In this document: positions 9,741-62,946 of the stretch, piece by piece
Numbering within the stretch: the stretch's first letter is position 1
Layout of the letters: every line of letters starts with the position of its first letter
DNA from: Phycisphaerae bacterium
GTDB taxonomy: Bacteria; Planctomycetota; Phycisphaerae; SM23-33
Length of the DNA: 64,000 nucleotides
Direction of reading: 5' to 3'
Assembly (NCBI GenBank): GCA_041661865.1
Contig: JBAZTO010000004.1
Coordinates: 614 to 64,613 of the forward strand
Notes under the pieces: generated by a model
Told to the model about the DNA's origin: nothing
The model's input: the letters and a program-made list of their open reading frames with translations, nothing else
The model's database searches: none
Position numbers and translations under genes: made by a program

Positions 9741-9790
9741 CAATGACGAATGACGAAGTGCGAATGACGAATCAATGACGAAACGTCACG
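9741..9790. repeat. GAATGACGAA-family repeat arm (forward orientation) directly after lexA stop
   Basis: caatgacgaatgacgaagtgcgaatgacgaatcaatgacgaaacg; inverted partner at 11368-11420; complete IR copies at 30786-30909 and 34249-34380. Confidence 0.7.
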
Positions 9791-12277: not shown

Positions 12278-13218
12278 CGCAGGTGCTCGAACAATGGCGT
12301 GGACAGGTAGCGCTCGCCGAAACTGGGCACAATGACGACGATGCACTTGCCGGCGGACTCGGGGCGATGGGCGACCTGGTGGGCCGCGGCCAGGGCGGCG
12401 CCCGAAGAAATGCCGACGAACAGGCCCGCGTCCTTGCAGGCGCGGCGGGCCCAGTCGATGGCCTCATCCTGGTCGATCGCGACCACCTCGTCGATGGCCT
12501 GGAGGTTGAGAACCTTGGGCACGAAGCCGGCCCCGATGCCCTGGATCTTGTGGGGCCCGGGCGTGAGGGCCTGTCCCGCCAGCGTCTGGGTGAGCACGGG
12601 GCTTTGTTTGGGTTCCACGGCGACGGCCCTGAAGCCCGCCCGCCGCTGCCGGATCACCTCGCTGATGCCTGTGATGGTGCCCCCGGTCCCGACGGCGGAG
12701 ACGACGACGTCCACCTTGCCATCGGTTCCGGTCCATATTTCCTCAGCCGTGGTGCGGCGGTGAATCTCGGGGTTGGCGGGGTTCTCGAATTGCTGCGGCA
12801 CGAAGCTGTTGGGCACGACGGAGGCCAATTCCCGGGCCTTCTCGATGGCCCCGGCCATGCCGCTGGCTGCGGGGGTCAGCGAAACCTCGGCCCCCAGGGC
12901 GCGGAGCACCTTGCGCCGCTCGATGCTCATGGAGTCGGGCATGGTGACGATGCAGCGGTAGCCGCGCACGGCGCAGACGAAGGCCAGCGCGATGCCCGTG
13001 TTGCCGCTGGTGGGCTCGATAATGGTCGAGCCTTCCTTGATCGCTCCGCTCCGCTCGCCCGCATCGATCATCGCCAGGCCGATGCGGTCCTTCACCGAGG
13101 CCATGGGGTTGAGGCTTTCCATCTTGGCCAGCACGGTGGCCTTGGAGCCGATGAGCTTGTGGATGCGAACCAGCGGGGTGTTGCCGATGGTCTGCGAGAT
13201 ATCGTCGAAGATGGGCAT
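12274..13218 (-). CDS. cysK: cysteine synthase A (O-acetylserine sulfhydrylase)
   Basis: 314-aa; PLP lysine motif SVKDR, GNTG, GTGGT loops typical of CysK. Confidence 0.92.
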
Positions 13219-15085: not shown

Positions 15086-15128
15086 GGTGGCACAGGCGCC
15101 TCGGGTAGCACAGGCGTCTCGCCTGTGC
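15086..15128. repeat. CACAGGCG-nGA-CGCCTGTG palindromic REP (two adjacent copies) upstream of prfB
   Basis: ggtggcacaggcgcctcgg + gtagcacaggcgtctcgcctgtgc; same palindrome at 19131-19156, 62947-62972 and in the 63018-63158 tandem. Confidence 0.6.
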
Positions 15129-16335: not shown

Positions 16336-16351
16336 CAGGTATCTCGACGCA

Positions 16352-16429
16352 CTAGCCGCGAGCGCAAAGCGAGCGGACTATTTCCTCTTCTGAACCGACA
16401 ATCCCCGCTCGCTTTGCGCTCGCGGCTAG
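16352..16429. repeat. 78-bp inverted-repeat element CTAGCCGCGAGCGCAAAGCGAGCGG - loop - CCGCTCGCTTTGCGCTCGCGGCTAG, 17 nt after prfB stop
   Basis: perfect 25-bp arms, loop ACTATTTCCTCTTCTGAACCGACAATCC; second full copy 21712-21779 after trpB; partial copies at 11265-11295 and 62836-62862. Confidence 0.7.
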
Positions 16430-16545
16430 TGCGTCAATGGCGGGCGATGCGGTGTGCGCGATCAAGAACCAGCGAGCCGTCTGAGGGGCTTGGGATCGCA
16501 TTGATGCGTTGACCCTGTCGGAATGTGCGGTTAAGCTGGCCGGCC

Positions 16546-17412: not shown

Positions 17413-17444
17413 TTCGCAGGGGAAGAGACCGGAATACCGAATTT

Positions 17445-17474
17445 GTAGGGCGTGCAACTTGTTGCACGCGGAAT
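17445..17474. repeat. GCGTGCAAC-TT-GTTGCACGC palindromic REP
   Basis: gtagggcgtgcaacttgttgcacgcggaat; copies at 35286-35313, 36487-36512 (inverted), variant 19086-19112. Confidence 0.6.
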
Positions 17475-19932: not shown

Positions 19933-19952
19933 CGCCGCTCTCCAAACAGAAT

Positions 19953-20065
19953 CACCAAGACCACAGAGAGCACAAAGATCACAAAGCACGCCAAATCAGG
20001 AACAGAAAGGCTGAGGTTCGTGCGGTTGCCTTTCTTTGAGGTCTTTGTGGCCTTCGTGGTTGTTC
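19953..20065. repeat. 9-bp-periodic inverted-repeat element (CACRRAGNN)x4 / spacer / (NNCTYYGTG)x3
   Basis: caccaagac cacagagag cacaaagat cacaaagca ... gtctttgtggccttcgtggttg; spacer contains AAAGGC/GCCTTT hairpin; lies in divergent NRDE/trpB promoter region. Confidence 0.65.
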
Positions 20066-21605: not shown

Positions 21606-21711
21606 TTGAACAACAGTGCGAAGTGCGTGGTGCGTAGTGCGAAGAACAACAACAGTGCGAAGTGCGTGGTGCGAAGAACAGCGGCGCCGCGCCAAGACGA
21701 ACTAGCCGCGA

Positions 21712-21779
21712 GCGCAAAGCGAGCGGATTATTTCCTCTTTTGAAACGACCACACCCGCTCGCTTTGCGCTCGCGGCTAG
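21712..21779. repeat. second full copy of the CTAGCCGCGAGCGCAAAGCGAGCGG inverted-repeat element, downstream of trpB
   Basis: same 25-bp arms and similar loop (ATTATTTCCTCTTTTGAAACGACCACAC); preceded by 24-bp direct repeat caacagtgcgaagtgcgtggtgcg x2 (21611-21671). Confidence 0.7.
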
Positions 21780-21863
21780 TTTGCCTTGGCACAGATCATG
21801 GTCGCAAACGCCGCGGGCCAGGGCACTCAGCCCTCTTCCCGGCTACTGACCACAGACTACCGG

Positions 21864-23937: not shown

Positions 23938-24099
23938 AAAGCACGGAGAACACGGAGACCGCAGAGAGCACGGAGCAAACCATCGTCGAGAAAAAGAAAC
24001 ACCCCGCGAAAGGCGGGGTGCTGGATTGCTCTTTGGGTCTTGTTCAGACTCTTGGACTGTTCTCTGTGGCCTTTGTGTTCTCTGTGATCTTTGTGATGG
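23938..24099. repeat. 9-bp-periodic inverted-repeat element flanking the rpoD terminator
   Basis: cacggagaa cacggagac cgcagagag cacggagca [spacer with terminator] ctgttctctgtggcctttgtgttctctgtgatctttgtgatgg. Confidence 0.65.
23986..24020 (-). terminator. rho-independent terminator of rpoD
   Basis: hairpin CACCCCGC-GAAAG-GCGGGGTG followed on minus strand by TTTCTTTTTCTC. Confidence 0.6.
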
Positions 24100-27715: not shown

Positions 27716-27935
27716 ATCACAGAGGGCACGGAGATCACAAAGATCACGGAGAATGGCAAACAGGGAAAGCACGAAGCCAAGGTACGACGAATCGTGCAAA
27801 GGTCAGGAACCGGACACTGCAAAGCCACCAGGCTCGTTGTTCTTTTTTCTGGTTTTTTCTGGCTTTCCGATAGGCACTATTCTCTCTTCAGCTTCTCTTT
27901 GTGATCTCTGTGTCCTTCGTGAGCTTTGTGATAGC
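27716..27935. repeat. 9-bp-periodic inverted-repeat element between dnaG start and rnhA end
   Basis: cacagaggg cacggagat cacaaagat cacggagaa [130-bp spacer with T-rich run] ctctttgtgatctctgtgtccttcgtgagctttgtgatagc. Confidence 0.65.
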
Positions 27936-30780: not shown

Positions 30781-30785
30781 TAGAA

Positions 30786-30909
30786 ACAATGACGAATGAC
30801 GAAATGCAAATGACGAATCAATACTCGAATGCTCGAATATCCCAAACAGAATCCCGTGGACCCTGTTGGGTTATTCGTCATTGACTCGTCATTCGAGTTT
30901 CGTCATTTG
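30786..30909. repeat. complete about 125-bp inverted-repeat element of the GAATGACGAA family between gfo and mnmE
   Basis: acaatgacgaatgacgaaatgcaaatgacgaatcaatactcgaatgctcgaatat [central cccaaacagaatcccgtggaccctgttggg] ttattcgtcattgactcgtcattcgagtttcgtcatttg. Confidence 0.7.
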
Positions 30910-30926
30910 TATTGGGTGGTCTCTTC

Positions 30927-33354: not shown

Positions 33355-34289
33355 GCGCGCCCGCGCGTAACGGCTGGCTGCCCGCCTGGCCGGGGCATCT
33401 GCGGCGGGCTGGCGTGCTGGGCATGAACGCCCGCAACACCCAACTGCTCGTGGCGCTGAACCCCAGGCGGCTCTACGACCTGGTCAACGACAAGATCCAG
33501 ACCAAGGAACTGTGCCTCCGCGAGGCGATCCCCACGCCGCGAACCTACGCGATCCTCGACCACCCCGCGCAGGTGCCCGCGGCGGCGGAGATCATGCGGC
33601 AGGCCGGCCAGTTCGTGGTCAAGCCCTCGCGCGGCAGCGGGGGCCGCGGTGTGCTGGTCATCGCCGGCAGCGAAGAGGGCGACTTCCGCACCTCCAGCGG
33701 CGTCGCGATGAGCTGGGACGAGATGCGGTACCACCTGCTGATGACGCTGGCCGGCGCGTTCTCCATCGGCGGCCGGGCCGACCGCGTGATCATCGAGCAG
33801 CGCGTCAGCCGCCACGCCGCCTTTGAAGGCCTGGCCGTCAACGGCACGCCGGATGTGCGACTGATCGTCTATCGTGGCAGCGCCATCATGGGCATGCTTC
33901 GCCTGCCGACGCTGGCCTCGGGCGGCCGGGCCAACCTCCACCAGGGCGCGCTGGGGCTGGGCCTGGACATCGCCACGGGCGTGTCCACCGGCGGCTTCTG
34001 CCGCGACCGCAGCGTGGAAGTTCATCCCGACACCGGGGCGGCCCTGACCGGCGTGGCTGTGCCGCGATGGAAGGAAATGCTGGCCGTGTCGGAGAAACTG
34101 TCAGCCGCGGTGGGCCTGGGCTACCTGGGCGTGGACATCGTGCTGGGCGAGGAGGGCCCGCTGGTCCTGGAGGCCAACGGCCGGCCGGGACTGTCCATCC
34201 AGATCGCCAACCGCTGCGGATTGATGACGCGGATCGCCGAAGCCGAGAATCGAATGACGAATGACGAAACTCGAATGATAAATCAATGA
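33351..34289 (+). CDS. ATP-grasp alpha-L-glutamate ligase-like protein (RimK-related)
   Basis: ATP-grasp motifs VVKPSRGSGGRGV, LGYLGVDIVL, LEANGRPG; GTG start overlapping upstream stop; last 13 codons ([13 protein letters not shown]) are encoded by the GAATGACGAA repeat arm. Confidence 0.8.
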   Translation: MSAPARNGWLPAWPGHLRRAGVLGMNARNTQLLVALNPRRLYDLVNDKIQTKELCLREAIPTPRTYAILDHPAQVPAAAEIMRQAGQFVVKPSRGSGGRGVLVIAGSEEGDFRTSSGVAMSWDEMRYHLLMTLAGAFSIGGRADRVIIEQRVSRHAAFEGLAVNGTPDVRLIVYRGSAIMGMLRLPTLASGGRANLHQGALGLGLDIATGVSTGGFCRDRSVEVHPDTGAALTGVAVPRWKEMLAVSEKLSAAVGLGYLGVDIVLGEEGPLVLEANGRPGLSIQIANRCGLMTRIAEAENRMTNDETRMINQ

Positions 34290-34380
34290 CGAATAACCCC
34301 ATACGTTTCGCGTGTTTCTGTTTGGGGCATTCGAGCATTCGAGTATTGATTCGTCATTCGAGTTTCGTCATTCGTCATTA
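34249..34380. repeat. complete inverted-repeat element of the GAATGACGAA family overlapping the 3' end of the ATP-grasp gene
   Basis: atcgaatgacgaatgacgaaactcgaatgataaatcaatgacgaataacc ... cattcgagcattcgagtattgattcgtcattcgagtttcgtcattcgtcatta. Confidence 0.7.
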
Positions 34381-34400
34381 TTGAGCGAAGGACTTACAGG

Positions 34401-35252
34401 ATGCACATTCTGGCCACCATCGTTCCCGCCGAGATCAACAACGTCTACGTCTTCCTGATCCTGGGCAGCCTGTCGGCCATGCTGGTGGCCGTCGCCAAGG
34501 CCGGCTTTGGCGGCAGCATCGGCATGCTGGCCTACCCGGTGATGTTGTACGCCTTCGGCGGCGACGCGTTCCTGGCCGCCGGCACGCAGTTGCCGCTGCT
34601 GATCGCCAGCGACATCCCAGCCCTGGTGCGGTGGTGGCGCAAGTGGAACGGCCACGCCGTGCGAATGCTGCTGCCCGGGGCGCTGGCCGGCATCGGCCTG
34701 GCGTGGTGGGCGCTGTGGATGCTCATCGGCGATGGCCGCACCGCCGAGCAGGTCAAGGTCGCCAAGGCCCAGGCCAACGGCGTGCTCCTGCTGCTGGTGG
34801 GCGTGATCGCGCTGGCCTTCGTCAGCCTGCAGGTGATCCGCTACCTTCGCCGGCGGGCGCTGGCCTTTCGCCCGGTCCCCTGGCAGGGCGCGGTCGCCGG
34901 CGGCCTGACGGGCGTCTGCTCCATGCTGGCCAATGCCGGCGGGCCCATTACCACCATGTTCCTGCTGCCCCAGGAAATGCCCAAGGGCATGTATGTGGCC
35001 ACCACCGTCCTGCTCTACGCCGTCATCAACGAGGTCAAGATCGCGCCCTTCTGGCATCTGGGGATGATGACGCCGCACACGCTGTGGGCCGGACTGCTCC
35101 TGCTGCCCGCGGCGGTGGCCGGCACGTTCCTGGGCCTCTACCTCCACGACCGCGTCGGCCAGAAACAATTCAACGGCATCGCCTACTCGCTGCTGTTCCT
35201 GGCCGGCATCGACATGGTGCACAAGGGCGTCAGGATCCTTTGGTTCTCATAG
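34401..35252 (+). CDS. TSUP (TauE/SafE) family anion exporter
   Basis: 283-aa, 7-8 TM, duplicated 4-TM halves with GGxxG/PLL motifs typical of TauE/SafE. Confidence 0.85.
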   Translation: MHILATIVPAEINNVYVFLILGSLSAMLVAVAKAGFGGSIGMLAYPVMLYAFGGDAFLAAGTQLPLLIASDIPALVRWWRKWNGHAVRMLLPGALAGIGLAWWALWMLIGDGRTAEQVKVAKAQANGVLLLLVGVIALAFVSLQVIRYLRRRALAFRPVPWQGAVAGGLTGVCSMLANAGGPITTMFLLPQEMPKGMYVATTVLLYAVINEVKIAPFWHLGMMTPHTLWAGLLLLPAAVAGTFLGLYLHDRVGQKQFNGIAYSLLFLAGIDMVHKGVRILWFS

Positions 35253-35313
35253 TGCGAAAGTGCGAAGCGGCAGGTCGTAGCGAAGTAGGGCGTGCAACTT
35301 GTTGCACGCAGGA
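35253..35313. repeat. composite REP: GTGCGAAAGTGCGAAG module + GTAGGGCGTGCAACTTGTTGCACGC palindrome
   Basis: immediately after TSUP stop; inverted counterparts at 36487-36575 on the other side of the methyltransferase gene. Confidence 0.6.
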
Positions 35314-35341
35314 GAGACTGCAAGAAGCAAGGAATCCGGTG

Positions 35342-36382
35342 TTACTCCCGCACCAAGTCCGCAACAAATCGCCGTCCCATCTGGTCTGGCTCGCGAGAGG
35401 TCGTGACGACCTTCTTGACGCAGAACCCGCTCTTCACCGCAAGGTGGAGCATATGGGTCTTGTCCACGAATATGTCCGCTTTCCGGGCAATTCGCCGGTA
35501 ATTATTTGCGGATACATTTGGAACTAGCCAGGGCTTTTCGCTATGGCATAACAGGAAGTGCCCACCGGGGCGGAGAACACGATGAGCTTCCTGAAACATA
35601 GTCGATATGCCGGCAAGTTCGCCGAAGGCATTAGAACAGGTCGCCACATCAAACGCTTCCGTCATGAGCGGCAACGCGCGAACATCACCACCGACGGCGT
35701 CGGCTCGTTGTTCTGCTTTTGCAACCCTGAACTTGTACTGCAACGTCCACAGGCATCGCAAGTCGCGCTCCACAGATATAGTTCTTTGAATGCTCCGGCA
35801 GTTGTGCAGCAGCCTGCTGATGAACCATCCACCGCCCGAGGCCAGATCGACGACAGAATGCGGCGACAGGTTACGAACTTGGCACACCATTTCCTCTACT
35901 TCGGAGCGCAAGCTTTGCTTCGTCGCTATCGGCCTTGAGATTGTTGCGACTCCGGAGATTGGCTTGCTCTTCGCGGCCCAACCGAGTAACCGGCTGCGAG
36001 CCTCACGAACTTGGCTAGGTGTGATCCGCCAAAGCCTCCGGCCCGACCGAAGATTCTCCCAAGGCCGTCGGAGATCTAGCTTGGAGCCGCGGCATACAGC
36101 TTGAACCAGTTCAGCGACGCGAGAATCTGTACAAGAGCCGGGCTGGTCGCTCAACACCTCGGCTAATGCGCATGACCATGTATTGCGGGCGCCTGGCGGT
36201 AGCAGGACCGGCCGCCCCAGCACTATGGGGTATCGTGTTCTGCATTCCTCGCATCGCAGGTGTCGGCCTCTTGTCTGCGGGCCAGACATACTCGCGATGC
36301 GCAGCGATCCCATACAGGCTGGACAGGCTAGGTAAGCGATGCTTTCTCTTCTCATAAGGCCACCCCGTTTCTGTTCGCTCAT
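35342..36382 (-). CDS. Trm112-like zinc ribbon fused to class I SAM-dependent methyltransferase
   Basis: N-terminal CPAC...CEECRTRYPI ribbon; MTase motif I VVDLASGGGWF and post-I VLRPGGHFLL; GC lower than flanks. Confidence 0.8.
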   Translation of the reverse strand: MSEQKRGGLMRRESIAYLACPACMGSLRIASMSGPQTRGRHLRCEECRTRYPIVLGRPVLLPPGARNTWSCALAEVLSDQPGSCTDSRVAELVQAVCRGSKLDLRRPWENLRSGRRLWRITPSQVREARSRLLGWAAKSKPISGVATISRPIATKQSLRSEVEEMVCQVRNLSPHSVVDLASGGGWFISRLLHNCRSIQRTISVERDLRCLWTLQYKFRVAKAEQRADAVGGDVRALPLMTEAFDVATCSNAFGELAGISTMFQEAHRVLRPGGHFLLCHSEKPWLVPNVSANNYRRIARKADIFVDKTHMLHLAVKSGFCVKKVVTTSREPDQMGRRFVADLVRE

Positions 36383-36426
36383 TCTACATGGATTGGCCGG
36401 AATTGAACAGTGGGATCAGACTTGGT

Positions 36427-36575
36427 AAGGCGTGCAACGAGTCTGCCACGGCGGCCAGGGTTCTGCACGCGGAAGAAACAATTCCCCGCGTGCAACGAGT
36501 TGCACGCCCTACTACCAACTGCCTGTAGGCAGGTTGCACGCCCTGCCAATTTCGCACTTCGCACTTTCGCACTGC
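36427..36575. repeat. cluster of REP modules inverted relative to 35253-35313
   Basis: aaggcgtgcaac[insert]gcacgcggaag; cgcgtgcaacgagttgcacgccctac; ctgcctgtaggcaggttgcacgccctgcc; aatttcgcacttcgcactttcgcactgc. Confidence 0.6.
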
Positions 36576-36585
36576 ATCCTCGGCA

Positions 36586-38640
36586 CTACGCCTTGAAGAT
36601 TCTTCCTTCCCGGTACTCCGTCCAGGCCGGCTCGAAGGCGATATTGCGGTCGGGGATCGGCCGGGGCGGGGCGTCGGCCAGATCGAACAGGTCTGCCGCC
36701 GCCGGGTTGTACCGCAGGCTCAGGATGCTGTTGCGGAGAGCGGTGTTCTCGGGGCGGAAGCGGTAGGGTTTGCCGGTGTCGGGGTCGATCAGGGCGGGGT
36801 GCATCGCGATGCCGTCCGAAGCCAGGATGCAGTGACTGCCGCGGCTGCCCACGCCGCGGCCGAACATGCCGCAGATGGCCTTGAGCATCGCCACGTGCGT
36901 CAGGCACTGCTGGACGGTGACCAGGTAAGCGTGAAGCTGCCTGGGATTGGCGACCTTCAGGCCTTCCTCCAGGCAGCGGCGGTACTGCGCCTTGGCCTCG
37001 GCGAGCGCCGCGGCGGCGCCGGCCTGGCTGCGAAGGTGCGCGCCGTGGCGGGTCATGCGTGCGGCGATATCGGCCATCGCGTCGTTGGGGCTGACCTTGG
37101 CGCGGGCGCCGCTCTCCATCGCCCGTCGCAATTCCTTGACGATCCGGCCCAGGCCCGCCTGTACCAGGCCGGTCCGCGCCGCAAAGTCCGGCCCGTCGCT
37201 GCTGTAGACGTGCGCGATGAACTCCGCCGCCCGCATCGCCCCGACCTGCCCGGCATTGAGCGCCGAACCGCCGGGACGCTTGACGCCGTGCGTGCCGGCC
37301 ATCTCGCCGATGACGAACGTGTGGGCGACCGAACTCTCCCACCACTTGTTGACCGCAAATCCGCCGTTGTGGTGCTGGGCGCACACGGCGATCTCCAGGG
37401 GCTCGCGATGGAGGTCGATGCCGTTTTCCTTGTAGATGTCGATGGCCGGCCCGTTCATGTGCAGCAGGCGGTCGATGGGCAACGCCTGCGTCGCTCCGGT
37501 CTTGTCGAGGTAGTCCAGCGCCTCGGGCCGCAATTTGCGGAGGTCGAACTTCTCCCACCCGCTCTTGCCGACGGGGTTGGACAGGAAGTCCATCCACACG
37601 CGCCGTCCGCGGACGACGGTTTCCATGTGGACGGCCATGTCGATCAGCGAGGACTGGGCATCGGTGATCCGCTGGGCGTCGAAGGGCCACTGGTAGCCCT
37701 TGAGGAAGATATTGGTGGCCAGGGTGGCCATGTCGTCGAAATACTCGGTGAGGAATTCGCGCGGGTCGTTGCCGTCGGCGTCGGTGGAGAAGATGCGCGG
37801 CACCACCTGCATGTAGGTGCCCGAGACGTTCCAGCGGAACTTGATGGAGGCCAGGCCGTACTGCGACTCGGTCATGTTGCAGGCTTCCAGTCCAGCCTTC
37901 AGCGCCGGGCTGTGGATGCCGTACTGCCCGCGCGGGTAGACGGTGTCGGCGTAGATTTCTCCGGGCCCGCCGGCCGCCAGCACCCAGTTCTCGGCCACGA
38001 AGGCCGACAGCCCCATCTCGCTGTCGCTGGTGCGGGCCATGTCCAGGCACACCATCGCGACGATGCGTTTGTCGGCCCCGCTGCCGTCGGTGAGAAAATC
38101 GACGACGACGTGCTTGTCGACGATCTCGACGCCCTCGCGCTGGGCCTGGGCCTGGAGCGACTGGGCCATGAACCTGCTGGTCTTTGGGCCGGCGGAGGTG
38201 GCGCGCTCGTAGGGGTCGTGGTCGGTCTTGTAGCCGATGAAGGCGCCCTGCGGATCGTGCGGGAACGGCACGCCCACTTCCACCAGGTGGTAAAAGCCGC
38301 GGAGCGAGCCGATGCCCTCGGCCAGAGCGTTGTCGCCGTTGCAGCAGCCGAAGGCCGTCAGCGTCCGGGCGAAGTCCTCAGCCGTGTCGGACACGCGCGG
38401 GCTGGTGCCCATCTTGTAGTAGGTCTGCTTGTCCGAGCCGCTCATGCGCGACGCGCCCAGGCCCAGCCCGCCGGTGACCACCCGCAGGTGCGAGGCCGGG
38501 TCGGCCACGCCGCGAACGCGCCAGAACTCCACCAGCTTGACCGCGCAGTTCATCGCCGCCGCTCCAGCCCCGACGATCACGGTGTTGACGCAGGTGACGG
38601 GTATCGAAAGGCCGTCAATGGTGAGAGTATTCTTCAACAT
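36586..38640 (-). CDS. FAD-binding oxidoreductase (fumarate reductase/succinate dehydrogenase flavoprotein-like)
   Basis: N-terminal VIVGAGAAAMNCA dinucleotide-binding motif; 684 aa with FAD-binding 2-like regions. Confidence 0.8.
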   Translation of the reverse strand: MLKNTLTIDGLSIPVTCVNTVIVGAGAAAMNCAVKLVEFWRVRGVADPASHLRVVTGGLGLGASRMSGSDKQTYYKMGTSPRVSDTAEDFARTLTAFGCCNGDNALAEGIGSLRGFYHLVEVGVPFPHDPQGAFIGYKTDHDPYERATSAGPKTSRFMAQSLQAQAQREGVEIVDKHVVVDFLTDGSGADKRIVAMVCLDMARTSDSEMGLSAFVAENWVLAAGGPGEIYADTVYPRGQYGIHSPALKAGLEACNMTESQYGLASIKFRWNVSGTYMQVVPRIFSTDADGNDPREFLTEYFDDMATLATNIFLKGYQWPFDAQRITDAQSSLIDMAVHMETVVRGRRVWMDFLSNPVGKSGWEKFDLRKLRPEALDYLDKTGATQALPIDRLLHMNGPAIDIYKENGIDLHREPLEIAVCAQHHNGGFAVNKWWESSVAHTFVIGEMAGTHGVKRPGGSALNAGQVGAMRAAEFIAHVYSSDGPDFAARTGLVQAGLGRIVKELRRAMESGARAKVSPNDAMADIAARMTRHGAHLRSQAGAAAALAEAKAQYRRCLEEGLKVANPRQLHAYLVTVQQCLTHVAMLKAICGMFGRGVGSRGSHCILASDGIAMHPALIDPDTGKPYRFRPENTALRNSILSLRYNPAAADLFDLADAPPRPIPDRNIAFEPAWTEYREGRIFKA

Positions 38641-38720
38641 TCTTCGTCCCTATGAATCGTGAACCACGAATCGCGAGCCACCAGCTACTGCCGATAGGGA
38701 TGTCTGGAACACCCGTAACC

Positions 38721-38808
38721 CAACACAGAGGTCACAGAGCGACAGAGCAGAACACCCTTGTATTCAAAATATGTTGTCTCTGTTTCTCTGCGACTCTGTG
38801 TCGCGTAG
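38721..38808. repeat. 9-bp-periodic inverted-repeat element with 16-bp spacer
   Basis: cacagaggt cacagagcg acagagcag aacaccc ttgtattcaaaatatg ttgtctctgtttctctgcgactctgtgtcgcgtag + TGTTTTTCGG. Confidence 0.6.
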
Positions 38809-38868
38809 TGTTTTTCGGAAGTCTTGGTTTCAAATCGCCAATTCAACTGCCAAGGAACGCTGGCGGCG

Positions 38869-38908
38869 GATCAATCTGCAATCTGCAATTGGCAATCTTC
38901 AATCTACA
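38869..38908. repeat. tandem heptamers CAATCTG x5 in the promoter region of the FAD-oxidoreductase gene
   Basis: gatCAATCTGCAATCTGCAATTGGCAATCTTCAATCTACagg; coordinates +/-2 nt. Confidence 0.45.
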
Positions 38909-39671
38909 GGATTCTCAGGTGGTAGCCGCCATCGACGTTGATAACCTCGCCGGTGGAGAACTTCAGGTCGCCGCGGGCGGCCGCCGCCACCGCGCAGGCG
39001 ATATCCGCCGGCTGGCCCCAGCGCTTGATGGGGGTGATGCCCTCGGCGATCAGCTTGTCGTACTTGTCCTTGACCGTCGAGGTCATGTCCGTGGCAATGA
39101 TGCCCGGGCGAATCTCGTAGACGCCGATGCCAAACTCCGCCAGGCGGGCCGCCCACAACTTGGTGGCCATCGAAACCCCGGCCTTGGAGATACAGTACTC
39201 GCCCCGGCCGGTGCTGGCCGTGTAGGCGCTCATCGAGGAAATGTTCACCACGCACATCCAACTCTCGGGCCGCTGCCGGCGCTGGCGAACCATCCAGTTG
39301 GCCGCCGCCTGGGTCAGGAAGTAGGGGCCCTTGAGGTTGATGGTCATCACCCGGTCGTAGCTCTCTTCGGTGGCCTCCAGAATGTCGGCCCGCACCTTGG
39401 GCGCCACCCCGGCGTTGTTCACCAGCACGTCCAGCCGCCCGAAGGTCCGCTCGATTCGCTCCAGGGCCCCGGCCCGGTCAGTCGCGGAGGTGACGTCGCC
39501 GGTAATGGCCAAGCCGCGCCGGCCGATCGATTCGATCTGGGCCACGGTCTCGTCGGCAGCGATGACGTCAAAGACCGCCACGTCCATGCCGTTGCGGGCC
39601 AGTTCGGCGGCAATGGCTGCCCCGATACCGCGGGCGGCCCCCGTCACCAGTGCCACAGGTTGATCGCTCAT
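38904..39671 (-). CDS. SDR-family oxidoreductase (3-oxoacyl-ACP reductase-like)
   Basis: TGAARGIG cofactor motif, NNAG, catalytic YxxxK (YCISK). Confidence 0.9.
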
Positions 39672-39967
39672 TGCATCTCCATTTTTGTCTGCCTGGGGAA
39701 GCCGAAAGTATGACTGTCCCCGCCGAGGCTGTCAAATCCATTGTGGTTGGAGTATGGGATGGGCCGCCAGCAAACCCCCTTCGCAGCCGCCTCCCCTGCC
39801 CCAGTCGCTTGGCGGCAGAAACAAGTCCGTCGGCCCGTATTACCCTCGCAATAATCATTGAGAAAAATACACAAGATTTCGCTTAACATATCGCGGGGTC
39901 TCCCTGATAATGAGATTCGGTACTGGTTACAGTGGCTTGTTCAATCCTGAATGTAACCGCCAAAACC

Positions 39968-40534
39968 ATGAAAGATAATCTATCTACCTTCGCCATCGCC
40001 GAATTGTTGCACGTGGATCCCGGTTCCATAGCCAATTGGATTGACCAGGATATCCTCAAGGCCTACAGGACGCCCGGCGGTCACCGGCGGGTACAGGTCG
40101 GCGACTTGCTCAATTTCCTGCACCAGCACAAGATGCCTGTCCCGCCCGAGTTGAACTGTCATCCGCATCGAGTCCTGATCGTCGATGACGAGCCCGGCAT
40201 TACCCAACTGGTCGCCAAGACGATCAAGACATCTTATCCCGAAGTCGAGGTTCTGGAAGCCAACGACGGATTCCTCGCCGGCGCCTTGGTCGCAACGCTC
40301 AAGCCCAATGTGGTGATCCTCGACCTGCGGATGCCCGGCATGGACGGTTTTGAGGTCTGCCGCCTTATCAAGTCACAGGACCAGACCAAAAATATCGATG
40401 TGGTGGCCATGACGGCCTTTCCCTCGCCTGACAGCGAGAAGAGCATCCTGTCCTGCGGGGCGAGGGTCTGCCTGAGCAAGCCTCTGGACATGGGGGTACT
40501 CTTGAAGGAACTGCGCACGTCCTTCTCGGCCTGA
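39968..40534 (+). CDS. response regulator: N-terminal MerR/excisionase-type HTH fused to REC receiver domain
   Basis: FAIAELLHVDPGSIANWI HTH; receiver with VLIVDDEP, phospho-acceptor Asp in VVILDLRMPGMDG, conserved K in LSKP. Confidence 0.8.
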   Translation: MKDNLSTFAIAELLHVDPGSIANWIDQDILKAYRTPGGHRRVQVGDLLNFLHQHKMPVPPELNCHPHRVLIVDDEPGITQLVAKTIKTSYPEVEVLEANDGFLAGALVATLKPNVVILDLRMPGMDGFEVCRLIKSQDQTKNIDVVAMTAFPSPDSEKSILSCGARVCLSKPLDMGVLLKELRTSFSA

Positions 40535-40564
40535 AGATCCGCCGATACGCATCATATTTCCGGT

Positions 40565-41569
40565 TCAGCAGGCGTTGTTATCCAGGCACCACTTGACCGA
40601 CCGGGCGATGCCCTCGTCGTATCCCACCGTCGGCTGCCAGCCCAGCTCGCGACGGGCCTTGTCGCAGGAGAAGAAGCACCTCCGCCCCATCAGCCAGACG
40701 GCGTAGCGGGTGACCAGCGGGGGCTTTTTCGTCGCGAGCAGGTGCCCGAAGAGTTCCATCAGAAAGGCGGCGTTGTAGGCGACCTTGTAAGGGACTTTGC
40801 GGGTGACGGGCTTGGCCCCGATGCACTGGGCGATCTTATTGAAATACTCCGCCTGCGTGATGACGCCGTCGTTGGACAGGTTGTAGGTTTCTCCGACGGC
40901 CTTGTCGCTGGTGGCGGCCAGGATGCAGCCCTCGGCCTCGTTGCCGGCGTAGGTGAGGTTGAGGCGGTTGCCGCCGTCGCCCAGGAGCTTGCACTTGCCG
41001 GCGCGGATGGCGCGGATGAGCCGGGGCATCGAGGCCCGGTCGCGCGGCCCGTAGAGCCAACTGGGCTTGACGATCGTGACGGGGAAGTCCCCGCGGGCGG
41101 AGGCCTCGCGGATGAGATTCTCGGCTTCCACCTTGGCCCGGCTGTAGTAGCTCCAGCGATGCAGGTTGACTCCCAGGGGGGCCGTCTCGTCCAGCACCAG
41201 GCCCGCCCCGTCGGGATGGCCGTAGCTGGAGATACTGCTGATATGCAGGAAGCGCCCCACGCCGGCGGCGCGGGCGGCCTGGATCATGTTCCGCGTGCCT
41301 TCGATGGTGACGGCCACGAAACGCTCCCACGGGCCCCAGTCGCCCACCTGGGCGGCGGCGTGGTAGACGGTCTTGACGCCCTTCATGGCCGCCTGGAGAC
41401 TGGCTGGGTCCGTCACGTCGCCGGGGGCTTTTTCAACGCCCCAGGAGTCCAGCAGCGCCGTATCGCTGCCGGGGCGGCACAGCACGCGAACGTCCTGGCC
41501 CGAGGCGCGAAGCTTCTCGACAATGTGGCTGCCCAGCAATCCGGTTCCGCCAGTAACCAAGTTCATCAT
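40565..41569 (-). CDS. NAD-dependent epimerase/dehydratase family protein
   Basis: N-terminal VTGGTGLLGSHIV Rossmann motif; YxxxK region (YSRAK). Confidence 0.85.
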   Translation of the reverse strand: MMNLVTGGTGLLGSHIVEKLRASGQDVRVLCRPGSDTALLDSWGVEKAPGDVTDPASLQAAMKGVKTVYHAAAQVGDWGPWERFVAVTIEGTRNMIQAARAAGVGRFLHISSISSYGHPDGAGLVLDETAPLGVNLHRWSYYSRAKVEAENLIREASARGDFPVTIVKPSWLYGPRDRASMPRLIRAIRAGKCKLLGDGGNRLNLTYAGNEAEGCILAATSDKAVGETYNLSNDGVITQAEYFNKIAQCIGAKPVTRKVPYKVAYNAAFLMELFGHLLATKKPPLVTRYAVWLMGRRCFFSCDKARRELGWQPTVGYDEGIARSVKWCLDNNAC

Positions 41570-44603: not shown

Positions 44604-44626
44604 GCTGAAAACCCGCTGCATTTTCA

Positions 44627-44664
44627 AGAGCCCCGGTGGCCCAGAGCCATCGGGGCTCTTTTGT
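44627..44664 (+). terminator. rho-independent terminator after ppdK
   Basis: AGAGCCCCG...CGGGGCTCT stem followed by TTTGT. Confidence 0.55.
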
Positions 44665-44926
44665 ATGCGCAGATCCCAGCCGGACCCATGCTTGACAGGG
44701 AGGTGGAGTTCCTACTCCACCTCCTGCTTGCCTCTCCTCTTACCGCGGCGGGGTATGCAACCCTGTTTTGGCCTTGGCTTGCCCGGCTAAACAGCAGTTT
44801 TGTGTCGCCAAAAGGCGTTCGCGGCGGTACAATACATGCAGATCGGAAGTTCATTTCGCGCAGGGAATTGACCGTCGATTCAGGCTGCGAACATGTCTTT
44901 TTGCGGGTTCGGCGAGGTGGTGGCTT

Positions 44927-46051
44927 ATGCGCTTGCGCCAGGTGCTATGCCCGAGCTGTGGGACGATCCTCGAAGTGCCGCCAGGGAAGGCGGACTGTTT
45001 CGTCCGGTGCGGCAAGTGTCACACCCGATTCCGCCTGCCCAAGCGGATCGCTGTCACCGACGACGCGGTCACCGACTGGCTGAGCGAAGAGCACGACGAG
45101 GAGGCGAAGGAGCACGCCGTCGCCGCGGCCCTGCGTCCGCATGAGGAGGCGGCCTCTGGAACAGGCACGTTCGTCCTGCCGGCGGTGCATGAGCCGATCC
45201 GCCTGGTCAAGAGCGACGCCAGCGGCGTACTGTTGGAATTCGCCGCCTCGCGCCTGACCGATCCGGCCTTCCGCTGCTGCATGCCTCGCAAGTGCCTCCG
45301 CTGCGGCGGCCAGTCGAACCTGGGGGCCCACGCCATCATCTATTCAACGACGCTGGTCGATGAGTCGTCCCTGGAGGCTGAGCATTCCGACGGGGCGTTG
45401 TCGCTGAAAGGGCCGGGAATCGCCGACCTCAGCGACGAGGAATTGCTCAATCGCATGCCCAAGGTTCCCAACGTGCCGCCGCCGGCCAACCTGCCCATGC
45501 CGTACTGGCTGTGCGACATGTGTACCTCCCGTGATATCCTCTCGGGGCAGATCCGCATGACTACCCAGGGACTGGGGCTCTGTCGCCTGTGGATCGGCAA
45601 TTTGCGGCGGGCCGAGGAGTTCCTGGTCGCCGCCGGCGGCAAAGACACCGCCGCGTACACCGAGATTCATCGCCGCATCCACGCGATGGCCGAGAACCCC
45701 TGGAGCAGCCTGCCCCCGGTCGTGCAGAACCGGCTTCAGCAGTGGTTCCGCCCGCAAAACGGCGAACACTTCATCGCCTATGTGGCCGACCGCGACCGTG
45801 CCCGCTCCGAGCAGGGCCTGGCCGGCATCGTCGTGACCAGCAAGCGTTTGATCTGTCACACCCTGTCGCGGCACAAAGAGACCGCGGCCACGGATAAAGT
45901 GGAGTTCGATGAGGTTCTGGCCTACGGAAAGCAGTGCCTGCTTATCCGCTGCCCGGCCTGGGAATTCAAGTACATGACCGTCGACCGCGAAGGACTGGCC
46001 ATCCTGCGTCACGCCTTGACCAAGGCCAAGATCCCGGCGGCATGGCACTAA
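44927..46051 (+). CDS. zinc-ribbon domain protein, hypothetical
   Basis: ATG 44927 with GAGGTGG SD; N-terminal CPSCG...CGKCH ribbon and second Cys cluster CCMPRKCLRCGG; high GC3. Confidence 0.6.
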   Translation: MRLRQVLCPSCGTILEVPPGKADCFVRCGKCHTRFRLPKRIAVTDDAVTDWLSEEHDEEAKEHAVAAALRPHEEAASGTGTFVLPAVHEPIRLVKSDASGVLLEFAASRLTDPAFRCCMPRKCLRCGGQSNLGAHAIIYSTTLVDESSLEAEHSDGALSLKGPGIADLSDEELLNRMPKVPNVPPPANLPMPYWLCDMCTSRDILSGQIRMTTQGLGLCRLWIGNLRRAEEFLVAAGGKDTAAYTEIHRRIHAMAENPWSSLPPVVQNRLQQWFRPQNGEHFIAYVADRDRARSEQGLAGIVVTSKRLICHTLSRHKETAATDKVEFDEVLAYGKQCLLIRCPAWEFKYMTVDREGLAILRHALTKAKIPAAWH

Positions 46052-46053
46052 GC

Positions 46054-46081
46054 TGGCTGCAATGAAGCTTGCAGCCAGCCA
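46054..46081. terminator. bidirectional hairpin between convergent genes
   Basis: GCTGGCTGCAA-tgaagc-TTGCAGCCAGC. Confidence 0.45.
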
Positions 46082-46235
46082 GAGCAGGAGAGCAGTAGAA
46101 AGTGGATAGGAGAGAAGACCAAGATGCACCTTTGATGAGTGGCGGCCCTTACAGGTGAGCTATTCGCTCTCCTGCGGTCTTCTTCCTCCTCTCAACTCTC
46201 TGATAACGCACTGCGCAAACAGGGGCGAAAGCAAT

Positions 46236-47489
46236 TCAGCCATTGGCTCGGCGGCGCCGTCCCGCCAGCACCATCGCCCCGATGGCCAGTAGTGACGCGC
46301 TGAGCGGTTCAGGCGTCAGCACCACGTCCCACGCCACGGATTCCTGTAAGAGGTTTCGCTGAGAGCGAACCCAGTCGGTCGGGTCATACGCCAACGCCAT
46401 GACGTTGTAGCTGCCGGCTGTATAGCCCCAGTCGGCTGGGTCGAACGTCTCGCCCGTCGCCCCGACGACCCGTCGCCCGTTGACGTACCACTTGACCGAG
46501 AGGACGTTGGGGTCGACCAGGTCCACCCAGAGGTTGTTGGGGTCCGTCAGCGGTTCGGAATCGTCGAGGAAAGAATCTATGGGCCGGACGATCCGATAGA
46601 TGTCCTGGATGATCTTCTCGCGGCAGACGGCGTTGAACGCATAGCCCAGCGATCGCATCTTGGAGTTGGCCGTGGGGCGGTAGATCCCGGTGTCATAGGT
46701 GCCGCCGCCCTCGTAGGCCCCGACCACGCCCAGATTGCCGTCCTCGTATCCCAGCCAGGACGACCATTGCTCTCCGCTGGCCGAGGTGGTGATGTTGGCC
46801 TGCCACGTCGGTCCGTAGGGGTACGCGCCGCCTCCGCCGTACTCGTCGGCCAGGTCGCTGAACTGGTGGCCCAGTTCGTGCAGCGCCAGTTCCCCCGTCC
46901 AGGTGTTGCTGCCGGCAAAGGCTGCGTACCGGGCGCCGCCGCCGCCGTAGGTGGATGCGTTGACGGTGATCAGGCGCATGTCTGCGTTGATGTCGGCCTG
47001 GCCGAAGTTGGCCGACATGGCGGCATTGGCCTTGGTTTCATCGATGTACAGCAGGCGCTGCGGCCCGCCGCCGTAGGCGTAGGAGGCATCCAGGGCCGTG
47101 TCGCGATAGATGCCCTGGTTGGGGTCATCAGCGCCGCTCTGATTGGACACCACATTGATGCGATAGGCGTTGAAGAAGTTGTGGTAGCGGGCGAAGGGGT
47201 CTTCTCCCTGATCGAACATGTGGGTCAGGACGGTGTCGATGTCGTGGGTGTAGGTGGTCTCGATCTGATCGGCGGTGTAGCCGTCGCCCATGAAGACGAT
47301 GTTGACGCGGTTGCCCGGATCGCCGGTTTGGCTGAAAACGGAGTAGTCCGCCCTGGCCGATCCAGCCAGCAAGACAGCGGCCACCGCGCAACCTGCCGCA
47401 GCCAAACCCAGGCCCCGTCGCAGCCGGCCCAGGGCGGCCCTTGCCGCCCGCAGCCAGAGGCCCGCAATTCCTCCGATACCATCGAACAT
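46236..47489 (-). CDS. M64-family (IgA-peptidase-like) zinc metallopeptidase with PEP-CTERM sorting signal
   Basis: signal peptide, HELGHQF zinc motif, C-terminal TPEPLSASLLAIGAMVLAGRRRRANG (PEP + TM + Arg cluster). Confidence 0.8.
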   Translation of the reverse strand: MFDGIGGIAGLWLRAARAALGRLRRGLGLAAAGCAVAAVLLAGSARADYSVFSQTGDPGNRVNIVFMGDGYTADQIETTYTHDIDTVLTHMFDQGEDPFARYHNFFNAYRINVVSNQSGADDPNQGIYRDTALDASYAYGGGPQRLLYIDETKANAAMSANFGQADINADMRLITVNASTYGGGGARYAAFAGSNTWTGELALHELGHQFSDLADEYGGGGAYPYGPTWQANITTSASGEQWSSWLGYEDGNLGVVGAYEGGGTYDTGIYRPTANSKMRSLGYAFNAVCREKIIQDIYRIVRPIDSFLDDSEPLTDPNNLWVDLVDPNVLSVKWYVNGRRVVGATGETFDPADWGYTAGSYNVMALAYDPTDWVRSQRNLLQESVAWDVVLTPEPLSASLLAIGAMVLAGRRRRANG

Positions 47490-47653
47490 GTGCCTGATCC
47501 TCTCTTGGATCGGCTCCCTCCGCCGGCAGCGTCGTCCTACCTCGTTGAGGCCGCCTCTGCTGCATCTGCCGGACCAGCCTTCATAAACTGATCCGGACCG
47601 CCAAAGAACCCTCTGGTCCTTCCTGGCCCATAGGCCATGTTACCTATTATACA

Positions 47654-49303
47654 TCAATGTCGCCTTCTGCGCCTTCGGCGTCTTCCGCCGCCCTGACCGC
47701 CCTGACCCTGCCCGTCGCTTGGGCCCTGGCCGGCTGGCGGGCCGCCGGCTTGTCCGGTGGCGCCGAGAGGGCTGCTCTGCGGCGAGGTGGGGTTGGGCGC
47801 TGCCGTGCGAGCCGGCTGCGATGGGGCGGCGTTGCCGCCCTGGCCGTCGCGACGCTCCCCGCCGCGCCGCCTGCGACCCCTGCGATGCCGCCGTCTCTGA
47901 GAGTCCTCCTGTCCCGGAGATGCGGGCGTCGAGGCACGCTGCACCTCTGAGGGCACCGCGGGCTGCCCCTCGCTCGGAAGGGCTGGCTGGTCGTCGTTCT
48001 CTGCCGCGACGTCCCCGTCGGCCGTTGGCGGCGTTTGGGTTTTCGGCGCCGCCTCGGGCAGGTCGGCCAGGCGCACATGCACCTTGGGCGGTTCGGCGGG
48101 CCGAGGCGCAGCCGGCGGCTGGATGGATACCGGCGGCACGTCGCGTTGCACGATCTCGTCGTTGCCGATGACCACCTGCGTGCCGTCCTGGAGTAGCAGG
48201 CGGACCAGTTGGGTGAGAATCTGGCCGTCGATGACCTTGCCCACGGCCGTGGCCGTCCGGACAAAGGTGTTCTTGCGGGGCAGGCGGGCGCGAAGCTCCT
48301 CGTAGCCGGCATCCTCGTAGCGCAGGCAGCACATCAGCCGGCCGCAGCGGCCGGAAATCTTGGCCGGGTCCAGCGTGGCCTTCTGCGTCTTGGCCATTCG
48401 CATCGAGATGGGCTTGAGATCCTTGAGAAAACCCTGGCAGCAGCACGGGCGGCCGCAACGCTCGAAGTCGCCCACCAGACGGGCCTCGTCGCGGGCGCCG
48501 ACCTGTCGCATCTCGATCCGCGTGCGGTACTGGGCGGCCAGGCGGCGGACCAGGTCGCGGAAGTCCACCCGTGTTTCGGAGGAGAAGTAGAAGATGATCC
48601 GCTCGCCGCCCAGCAGGTGCTCGACGGTCACAAGCTTCATCGACAGCTTCATCGCGCGGATTTCCTTGCGGCAGTAGGTGGCCTCTTCGTGGGCGTTGCC
48701 GTCCAGGTGCCGCTGGTCCAGCAGGTCCTGCGAGTTGGCCAGGCGGAGGAACTTGCCGTCGCGCATGAAGGGGTAGTCCGGGCCGCAGGAGCGGATGAAG
48801 TCCATCAGCTTGGCCGGCGTGACCAGGCCCGGCCCGCCTTGTTCGGACACGATCGCCACGACCTCGGCCAGTTCCACGCCGCGCTCGGTCCTGGCCACCA
48901 CCTTGGCCCCCGGCAGCAGCCGGCGTTCCAGGTTGTGGCTGAACCCCCCCAACGCCCGCATCACGCCGTAGCGTGCGACGACCTTGCCTACCAGGGCGGC
49001 AAGCTCCGGCGGCAGCGAGGCCTTCTCGGCAGATGCCTCTTCCTGCTCGGCAAGTTGGTCAGCATGGCACTGGGAGCAGCCGCACAGGCCCAGGGCCTGG
49101 CCTGGACAGGCCTCGGCGACATCCTCGCCGGCGGGGGGGGCAGACGGGGAAAAGCCGTTCGGCTCGGCCATGGGCTGGCCCTCAGGCATGGAGGCGGCGG
49201 GGGATTGGGCAGCGCCGATGGGCGCGGATTCTGCCGGGTCGGTCGGGAGCGATGAATCCGACATGCGGGTTCCGTTCTGTAAGCCGCGGCGGCCCGCGGG
49301 CAC
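47654..49303 (-). CDS. PSP1 C-terminal domain protein (RicT/YaaT-like) with long Pro-rich/Arg-Gly-rich tail
   Basis: CGRPCCCQGF and GRCGRLMCCLRYED motifs of PSP1/YaaT; about 170-aa low-complexity C-terminus ending RRRRRRRRH. Confidence 0.8.
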   Translation of the reverse strand: MPAGRRGLQNGTRMSDSSLPTDPAESAPIGAAQSPAASMPEGQPMAEPNGFSPSAPPAGEDVAEACPGQALGLCGCSQCHADQLAEQEEASAEKASLPPELAALVGKVVARYGVMRALGGFSHNLERRLLPGAKVVARTERGVELAEVVAIVSEQGGPGLVTPAKLMDFIRSCGPDYPFMRDGKFLRLANSQDLLDQRHLDGNAHEEATYCRKEIRAMKLSMKLVTVEHLLGGERIIFYFSSETRVDFRDLVRRLAAQYRTRIEMRQVGARDEARLVGDFERCGRPCCCQGFLKDLKPISMRMAKTQKATLDPAKISGRCGRLMCCLRYEDAGYEELRARLPRKNTFVRTATAVGKVIDGQILTQLVRLLLQDGTQVVIGNDEIVQRDVPPVSIQPPAAPRPAEPPKVHVRLADLPEAAPKTQTPPTADGDVAAENDDQPALPSEGQPAVPSEVQRASTPASPGQEDSQRRRHRRGRRRRGGERRDGQGGNAAPSQPARTAAPNPTSPQSSPLGATGQAGGPPAGQGPSDGQGQGGQGGGRRRRRRRRH

Positions 49304-49550
49304 ACGTGCGTTTCCGGTCCTCGGTCCGTCGCCGAGGCTCTAGACGCCCCGAAGGGCCGGCCGGCCTTACGCTCGTCGATGGAGGCCAACCGTCGACCGC
49401 CACACCCGCAAACCCTTTGCCAGCGGAAAGCGGCAGCAGCGGTACCCACGAATTATACGGTATTTCGCCTTCCGCGTTAAGTCCTTTTCCGCAGACCCCG
49501 TCCGGGGCGAGGCATTGTATAATGAAGCAGTGGAGGTAACGAAGTAGCGA

Positions 49551-62775: not shown

Positions 62776-62946
62776 TACCTGGTTATCGACTTCCGGTTTC
62801 TTGATTTTTCGATTTCAGCCGCCGCGGGTGCCCAGATCAAACCAGCCGTGAGCGCAAAGCGAGCGGAAATCCTGGCGACACTTTCCGGCCTCGCGAGCAA
62901 AACAGTCTACAACGTCGCCCGGCGGTTTGCACTCTCATTGCGTTCT

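Follow-up and report, generated by a model that had tools for sequence, protein, structure and literature searches.

We analysed a window of 64,000 nt from an uncultured member of the Phycisphaerae (contig JBAZTO010000004.1 of assembly GCA_041661865.1, positions 614 to 64,613 of the forward strand), the host genome having a GC content of roughly 70%. At 35342-36355 of this window, a methyltransferase gene on the minus strand is located between two mirror-image repeat clusters, which combine a repetitive extragenic palindrome (REP) with arrays of 7–8-base units. The explanation that we favour, with a probability of about 0.55, is that this gene was acquired horizontally and lodged in the middle of a palindromic composite of REPs and heptamer arrays formed by the 3' decorations of two convergent genes, that the REPs are substrates of REP-associated tyrosine transposases (RAYTs) and not carriers of the gene, and that the gene is probably expressed by read-through from the neighbouring FAD-binding oxidoreductase gene.

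Comparison of the two flanks showed that the order of their modules is mirrored, with the arrays outermost and the palindromes innermost on both sides. The outer module, AGTGCGAAAGTGCGAAG, is located at 35251-35267 on the plus strand and at 36557-36573 on the minus strand, and its two copies are complementary at 17 of 17 positions. The inner module of 29 nt, of the form AGTAGGGCGTGCAACNNGTTGCACGC and reading AGTAGGGCGTGCAACTTGTTGCACGCAGG at 35284-35312, is complementary to 36485-36513 at 27 of 29 positions (93%) in the inverted-repeat alignment. With one perfect module of 17 nt and one 93% module of 29 nt in mirrored positions, the flanks have the form of terminal inverted repeats. The longest perfect inverted repeat between positions 35150 and 36700 was 17 nt, against a maximum of 15 nt in 300 first-order Markov resamples. 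The sequence-only reading had placed the same modules in inverse orientation and order on either side of the gene, which this comparison confirmed, with coordinates that were right to within 2 nt. Its description of the right flank held for the modules that it named and was incomplete, as this flank also contains a REP whose loop carries an insertion of 21 nt, a chimeric REP and a third array unit. The lower GC content that it attributed to the gene was also found: GC was 0.55-0.61 over 35250-36600 and 0.63-0.74 on either side, the dip being limited to approximately 35250-36600, and GC at third codon positions (GC3) was 0.61 for the methyltransferase gene, while it was 0.94 for the TSUP transporter gene on one side and 0.91 for the FAD-binding oxidoreductase gene on the other.

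The inner palindromes are true GTAG-type REPs, so that the label 'REP' given to them from the sequence was appropriate: they have a GTAG head, a palindrome, and a cognate RAYT on other contigs. The format GTAG + GGCGTGCAAC NN GTTGCACGC was found at positions 35285, 36512 (reverse strand) and 17445. The left REP, GTAGGGCGTGCAACTTGTTGCACGCAGGA (35285-35313, plus strand), has its GTAG head towards the neighbouring TSUP transporter gene, 32 nt past the stop codon of this gene. The right REP (36484-36512, minus strand; GTAGGGCGTGCAACTCGTTGCACGCGGGG as its reverse complement) has its GTAG head towards the FAD-binding oxidoreductase gene. Each of the two differs at two positions from the 29-nt consensus GTAGGGCGTGCAACNNGTTGCACGCGGAA built from metagenome copies, while a third full copy (17445-17473, plus strand) agrees with it throughout. 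This third copy is located 32 nt past the stop codon of a gene for prephenate dehydrogenase. The 24-nt palindrome pattern occurred three times in the window when none was expected, and GCGTGCAAC occurred nine times when 1.0 was expected. In total, three full and three variant REP copies were found in the window, all of them extragenic and adjoining the 3' ends of genes. On the right flank, a variant GTAAGGCGTGCAAC-...-GTTCTGCACGCGGAAGAA (36425-36476, plus strand), with the 21-nt insertion in the loop of its palindrome, forms an inverted doublet with the right REP (36425-36512), and this flank folds as a nested hairpin of its own (z = -4.75). The chimeric REP that follows (36513-36549, minus strand; GGCAGGGCGTGCAACCTGCCTACAGGCAG as its reverse complement) was identified by direct reading, and the chimeric unit recurs at 11303-11338, beside an open reading frame (ORF) located downstream of lexA.

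A scan of metagenome contigs with GTAGGGCGTGCAACNNGTTGCACGC returned at least 120 stretches from many samples. Short doublets of plus and minus REPs, with 18-29 nt between the 29-nt units as in REPINs (REP doublets forming hairpins), were found on five contigs (L102, L109, L125, L136 and L154). On three others (L091, L127 and L184), a plus and a minus REP enclose a RAYT ORF with HUH and Y motifs, and REPs adjoin RAYT genes, as detected by tblastn, on two more (L121 and L149). The RAYT protein of L091 matched Pfam Y1_Tnp with 29.1 bits (cut-off 23). No RAYT was detected in the 64-kb window by tblastn with a RAYT query. GTAG-type REPs, bacterial interspersed mosaic elements (BIMEs), REPINs and their RAYTs have been described previously (Nunvar 2010, PMC2817692; Bertels & Rainey 2011, PMC3116915; Di Nocera 2013, PMC3733652). 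GTAG REPs are found in Planctomycetes; they are mostly located downstream of ORFs, where the neighbouring genes are unidirectional or convergent, they frequently provide the stop codon, and their dimers have the GTAG ends outside (PMC3733652). The elements studied here resemble these GTAG REPs, BIMEs and REPINs in having a GTAG head and a 20-bp palindrome, in their extragenic location just downstream of ORFs and in their inverted doublets with GTAG outside. They resemble REP/RAYT systems in the IS200-like RAYT genes located between plus and minus REPs on other contigs and in a compensatory stem change, since the variant GCGAGCAAC..GTTGCTCGC of contig L179 retains its stem through a change on both sides. 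Unlike known REP/RAYT systems, they have a methyltransferase gene between a plus and a minus REP, they are combined with heptamer arrays close to stop codons, and their host is an uncultured member of the Phycisphaerae. The left and right REPs do not form a REPIN, being 1.17 kb apart, and the locus is not a REPtron, the enclosed gene being a methyltransferase and not a RAYT gene.

Two further features of the REPs were observed. Both plus-strand REPs begin exactly 32 nt past the upstream stop codon, and the spacers involved (17413-17444 and 35253-35284) are not obviously alike. In some copies, the loop of the main palindrome contains another small palindrome or an insert of 14-21 nt (1730-1760 of L091, 1135-1179 of L202 and 36425-36476 of the window); from these inserts, it seems that the REP loop tolerates or attracts small insertions.

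The enclosed gene encodes a protein of 337 aa from the ATG at 36355, or of 346 aa if the ATG at 36382 is used; the gene call in another assembly (L081) uses the former and gives 337 aa. The protein has an N-terminal Trm112-like zinc ribbon (CxxC...CxxC), a linker and a class I S-adenosylmethionine (SAM) methyltransferase domain. Its identification from the sequence as a Trm112-like methyltransferase is borne out by a match to Pfam Methyltransf_11 (E 6e-11) and by the conserved cysteines, although the Trm112 profiles stayed below threshold (Pfam Trm112p, 19.1 bits for a cut-off of 22; NCBIfam Trm112_arch, E 3e-7, under its cut-off). Alignment with homologues showed that the invariant C11, C14, C35, GRP, D170, G174/G176 and the DxxxGGG motif are kept, and the gene looks intact since all invariant positions of the family are retained. 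Its GC1/2/3 values are 0.60/0.51/0.61. The family is very rare: a search of 5.8 billion clusters gave 16 homologues, of which the best that is full-length is 46% identical, and 12 clusters at E<=1e-30 were found among 1.84 billion representatives. These homologues are located in unrelated neighbourhoods, on contigs that also bear DDE_5 and Phage_integrase genes, and the closest of them likewise has a low GC3 relative to its own contig. No plasmid or phage matches to the methyltransferase were found. The exact 337-aa protein was recorded from the same contig only, and no record was found of the 346-aa form, of the FAD-binding protein or of the adjacent SDR protein. The methyltransferase gene, which is compositionally foreign, thus looks imported.

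A role of this gene in defence or restriction-modification was rejected, the match to PADLOC mad2 being a generic one to the methyltransferase domain. A search of the PDB gave matches to TAL effectors (E about 1e-8; residues 137-186, approximately 35800-35950 of the window) in which no single stretch passes; we read these matches as the sum, over many repeats, of a resemblance limited to the surroundings of the SAM-binding motif VVDLASGGG, and not as homology. Two contigs from JGI and ENA assemblies (L082 and L083), which are 100% identical to the window, both end at exactly base 35911, which falls halfway through the methyltransferase gene. These ends are not accounted for by any repeated 12-mer, and a strain variant or a coverage break may be their cause.

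The genes on either side of the locus are convergent. On the left, the TSUP/TauE-family transporter gene (34401-35252, plus strand; Pfam TauE, E 4e-22) is the final gene of a 7TM_transglut - ATP-grasp - TSUP block that runs rightwards, and its stop codon shares 2 nt with the left array. On the right, the gene of an FAD-binding oxidoreductase of the succinate dehydrogenase / aspartate oxidase flavoprotein superfamily (36586-38640, minus strand; Pfam FAD_binding_2) begins an FAD - SDR - response regulator block that runs leftwards. The left array is made of two 8-nt units, AGTGCGAA AGTGCGAA G (35251-35267, period 8 in Tandem Repeats Finder), and begins at the stop codon of the TSUP gene. The right array (36550-36573, minus strand), which reads AGTGCGAA AGTGCGA AGTGCGAA as its reverse complement, begins 12 nt past the stop codon of the FAD gene and is in the sense of this gene. 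Tandem arrays of 7-8 nt units, of the AGTGCGA and AATGACG types, form a class in this window, and all eight of the heptamer arrays start between -13 and +12 nt from a stop codon, in the sense of the gene that ends there. The three convergent gene pairs with arrays have the same array type on either side, and at 347-418, 30785-30910 and 34253-34382 pairs of arrays form hairpins across the whole intergenic spacer. Related Phycisphaerae contigs likewise carry heptamer arrays and inverted array pairs.

In the explanation that we favour, each of the converging genes ends with the common 3' decoration of this genome, in which an array starts at the stop codon and a GTAG-type REP comes next, with its head facing the gene. 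Because the TSUP and FAD genes are convergent, the two decorations are mirror images, which largely explains the symmetry of the locus. Together, they make up a single palindromic composite of the BIME/REPIN type, which we infer to have been present before the gene arrived. A rare foreign gene for a SAM-dependent methyltransferase would then have been acquired horizontally and have lodged in or between the palindromic repeats, while the REPs would be substrates of a transposase family of the RAYT type (IS200-like Y1). The methyltransferase gene leaves very little room between itself and the innermost REPs, with 28 nt to the left REP and 42-69 nt to the right cluster, depending on the start codon, and it has the orientation of the FAD gene. 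No sigma-70-like promoter was found between 34200 and 36800, where a promoter and terminator scan gave nothing useful. Expression by read-through is probable given this orientation and the lack of a promoter-like site; transcripts would cross the REP hairpins, which would modulate expression, as in other bacteria.

Several observations weigh against this explanation. The order of events, with the palindrome first, is only suggested, since no empty site was recovered. The short intact element that would be the uninterrupted form, array-REP-loop-REP-array, was not found. The similarity of the left and right REPs (27/29) is at the level that is generic in the family, the left copy being equally close to the copy at 17445, and the features specific to the pair are limited to the 17-nt array and the GGCAGG that follows it. 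Since the right flank has a complete doublet of its own, there is no need to regard the left and right REPs as arms of one element. Finally, in a close strain (P0017, ENA ERZ1426824), a plus-strand gene is called 219 nt past the TSUP gene, which hints at a different content after TSUP and at a polymorphism. A search for this plus-strand gene as an antisense call within the FAD gene, which would imply an empty site, gave no matches. The TSUP protein of this strain is 99% identical to that of the window and ends in ..ILWF* instead of ..ILWFS*, and the spacer upstream of its gene is 16 nt shorter; the C-terminus shorter by one residue could be due to a simple 3-nt indel.

An alternative explanation is that the repeats colonised two new intergenic spaces independently after the arrival of the gene, in which case the mirror symmetry would come from the orientation rules of the repeats and from chance, with no common origin of the flanks. 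REPs and arrays are common in the intergenic DNA of this genome, the similarity of the two REPs is generic to their family, the right flank has a doublet of its own, and segments of low GC are enclosed by repeats of both orientations. The 17/17 identity of the outer modules argues against this explanation, as it includes an 8-nt spacing variant of the 17-mer that was found in the left/right array pair only, and so does the GGCAGG that follows the array on both flanks. The ORF downstream of lexA also argues against it, having one arm of a hairpin on each side and not a whole element. We regard independent colonisation as unlikely.

The sequence-only reading had also described the methyltransferase gene as the cargo of the repeats, a claim that our results did not support. 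It would correspond to a non-autonomous mobile cassette extending from 35251 to 36573, with composite ends made of an array and a REP and with the methyltransferase as its passenger gene, for which a RAYT or some other transposase would act in trans, in the manner of a mobile insertion cassette or of a REPIN with an oversized spacer. The mirrored composite ends are consistent with such a unit, and they abut the stop codons of both neighbouring genes, as would be expected after insertion into a tiny convergent spacer (4-21 nt in relatives). RAYT genes hold the equivalent position between plus and minus REPs on the contigs described above, and other non-RAYT genes were found between such REPs: an FGE-sulfatase-like protein gene between convergent genes on contig L098, and the low-GC gene of a T5orf172 protein on contig L179. 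The bracketing of the lexA-downstream gene by the two arms of a hairpin family that has intact copies of 126 nt also points in this direction.

No target-site duplication was found: the sequences outside the unit are ...TTCTCAT| and |GCATCCTC, which share a direct repeat of about 3 nt at most, and this one is out of register. No second copy of the unit was found, the exact protein being known from the same contig only. With neither a duplication nor a second copy, the locus lacks key features of a mobile insertion cassette. No REPs or flanking inverted repeats were found around the homologous methyltransferase genes of contigs L084, L085 and L086, and no RAYT is located in the 64-kb window. 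Inverted repeats also surround a gene that belongs to the conserved core of these genomes: the FAD gene is flanked by an inverted pair of REPs of another family on contig L008, and by a pair of non-REP hairpin repeats on contig L004. Pairs of REPs that are a gene length apart and do not surround a RAYT are in the same orientation in about seven cases and in opposite orientation in three. Low GC inside repeat pairs was about as frequent for direct as for inverted pairs, and an orientation-specific link of inverted repeats with low GC was rejected for this reason. Enzymes of the IS200/IS605 type act on ends in direct orientation and are not known to act on inverted ones, which also counts against a cassette. 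Movement of the unit is not supported by these results, and we consider this explanation doubtful and rather improbable.

Comparison with known mobile systems leads to the same distinctions. Mobile insertion cassettes and miniature inverted-repeat transposable elements (MITEs) with a passenger consist of inverted repeats that bracket a gene other than a transposase gene. The locus resembles them in its inverted repeats around a non-transposase gene and in that the segment fills the space between the neighbouring genes, and differs from them in that it lacks a target-site duplication, a second copy and an identified transposase, and in that its ends are generic repeats found genome-wide. Integron cassettes are recognised by an attC site (R''-L''...L'-R'), the core of which is GTTRRRY, and by an integron integrase in the vicinity. 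The single, apparently promoterless ORF beside an imperfect palindrome is reminiscent of such a cassette; the elements here differ in being GTAG REPs tied to a Y1 transposase, inverted on both sides, and no attC architecture was recognised by reading. An integron cassette was rejected on its anatomy by direct reading, the palindromes being perfect and headed by GTAG, while GTTGCAC does not fit GTTRRRY. No integrase was detected in Pfam scans of the 7TM, TSUP, FAD and SDR genes. Insertion sequences that target REPs are also known (Tobes & Pareja 2006, PMC1525189; ISPpu9, PMC8450116). The presence of foreign DNA within a REP cluster, with REPs left on both sides, recalls their insertions, but the segment holds the methyltransferase ORF only, with no transposase gene and no insertion sequence ends.

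The gene order around the locus was compared with that of relatives at 80 genome loci of the FAD gene. Among 185,579 species representatives, the best FAD identity was 74%, and these relatives proved too distant to provide an empty site. The neighbouring SDR and FAD genes form a widely kept core that was found in more than 60 relatives, and the methyltransferase gene was absent from every related locus. The sequence-only reading had suggested checking whether the TSUP gene is directly adjacent to the FAD gene in relatives; it is so in none of them, and the TSUP, methyltransferase, ATP-grasp and 7TM genes were never found after the FAD gene at these loci. The block 36586-41569 is kept on contigs L001, L002 and L025, and on L011 with one gene inverted. 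On L001 and L002, the FAD gene is followed by homologues of the window genes located at 44768-49354, so the block formed by FAD, SDR, the response regulator and the gene at 40565-41569 is inverted relative to 44768-49354 of the window. On L025, it is followed by homologues of the window genes from 29354 down to 24130, collinear with the window, and about 7 kb that include the 7TM, ATP-grasp, TSUP and methyltransferase genes are absent. The 7TM - ATP-grasp - TSUP trio is kept on L209, and on both L207 and L209 a different convergent gene is located 4-21 nt past the TSUP gene. The closest distinct relative of the TSUP protein is 56% identical, and its gene has other convergent neighbours. The DNA of the window was found at 100% identity in three other assemblies. 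These synteny comparisons place the methyltransferase gene exactly at the junction of two conserved blocks, at a recurrent breakpoint.

This gene order raises the possibility that the flanks are substrates or scars of a rearrangement, in which recombination between inverted REP or array copies joined the TSUP and FAD blocks and carried the methyltransferase gene along. The inversion deduced from L001 and L002 and the 7 kb that are additional in the window, when compared to L025, between the FAD gene and the genes at 24-29 kb both favour it, and from these two differences the 3' end of the FAD gene appears as a recurrent breakpoint. However, the other inferred breakpoint, at 44604-44767, has neither a REP nor a heptamer array, and the foreign composition of the gene is left unexplained. 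We judge such a rearrangement to be very improbable.

The pattern of a low-GC gene bracketed by repeats had also been proposed for the gene downstream of lexA, and we did find a second low-GC gene bracketed in this way. This ORF (9978-11168; 396 aa, GC3 0.56) sits between lexA (plus strand) and a convergent PHP-domain-like gene (11408-12346, minus strand), which was identified by eye. The arrays located by the stop codons of these two genes correspond to the arms of a 126-nt hairpin family, the left arm at 9742-9789 and the right arm at 11365-11420, so that each side of the ORF has a single arm and no whole element. The right side keeps part of the hairpin loop, and the right arm encodes the last codons of the PHP-domain-like gene. 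A chimeric REP is located just inside the right arm at both the lexA-downstream and the methyltransferase loci. Intact copies of the 126-nt element are present at 30785-30910 and 34253-34382; they are 86% identical and inverted relative to each other, their arms are irregular AATGACG heptamer arrays, and each occupies an entire intergenic spacer. The ATP-grasp gene takes its C-terminus and stop codon from one of them, and the element thus behaves in a MITE-like manner. The lexA-downstream ORF had no family matches in Pfam, PHROG, PADLOC or PDB; by reading of its translation, the protein appears mostly helical, with an N-terminus that is hydrophobic. That it would be a transposase, with the 126-nt hairpins as its MITEs, was rejected as unsupported on these grounds.

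With both loci, the 64 kb thus hold two cases in which convergent genes enclose a low-GC gene that separates the halves of a palindromic element, while the other three low-GC3 regions of the window have no such brackets. A broader and speculative proposal, to which we give little credence, is that palindromic intergenic elements at convergent junctions are preferred landing pads for single foreign genes in Phycisphaerae. The genes would enter in the loop and leave the arms as brackets, and in the transcript the arms could pair as a panhandle of 17-41 bp around the ORF, insulating or tuning it. The methyltransferase gene and the lexA-downstream ORF would be two such cases, and similar ones were seen on contigs L098, L148 and L179.

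On the ordinary reading, these results document a widespread GTAG-REP/RAYT family in uncultured Phycisphaerae, combined with heptamer arrays close to stop codons, and show accessory genes within repeat clusters at synteny junctions, which is of help for annotation and for the recognition of islands in metagenome-assembled genomes. REP/RAYT systems are usually regarded as domesticated and free of cargo; should it be shown that foreign genes insert at the hairpins, or that passengers are mobilised by pairs of REPs, these systems would be linked to gene acquisition.

The heptamer arrays also invite comparison with the short tandemly repeated repetitive (STRR) sequences of heterocystous cyanobacteria, which are intergenic tandem heptamers, present as several types per genome and often as inverted pairs that form hairpins. 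STRR sequences are mentioned in PMC5088731. The arrays of the window are STRR-like in consisting of tandem 7-nt units, in their intergenic location, in their several types and in being often found as inverted pairs. They differ from STRR sequences in their units (AGTGCGA and AATGACG), in belonging to another phylum, in starting at stop codons and in being combined with REPs.

Other repeats were observed in the window. A third hairpin family, with arms of 31-36 nt (..CTAGCCGCGAGCGCAAAGCGAGCGG) and a loop of 28 nt, is present at 16346-16435, 21691-21790 and 11257-11290, these including a lone half copy that adjoins the lexA-downstream ORF. Arrays of nonamers, ATCACAAAG / CACGGAGAA and their complements, are located at 19951-19986, 23942-23975, 24058-24095, 27716-27752 and 27897-27931; they are intergenic, and some form inverted pairs. 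A second GTAG-REP family, GGTAGCACAGGCGTCTCGCCTGTGAGTGT, is found at 62946-63157 and 15086-15121, with five head-to-tail copies (29-nt period, 99% identity) and one inverted copy 47 nt upstream.

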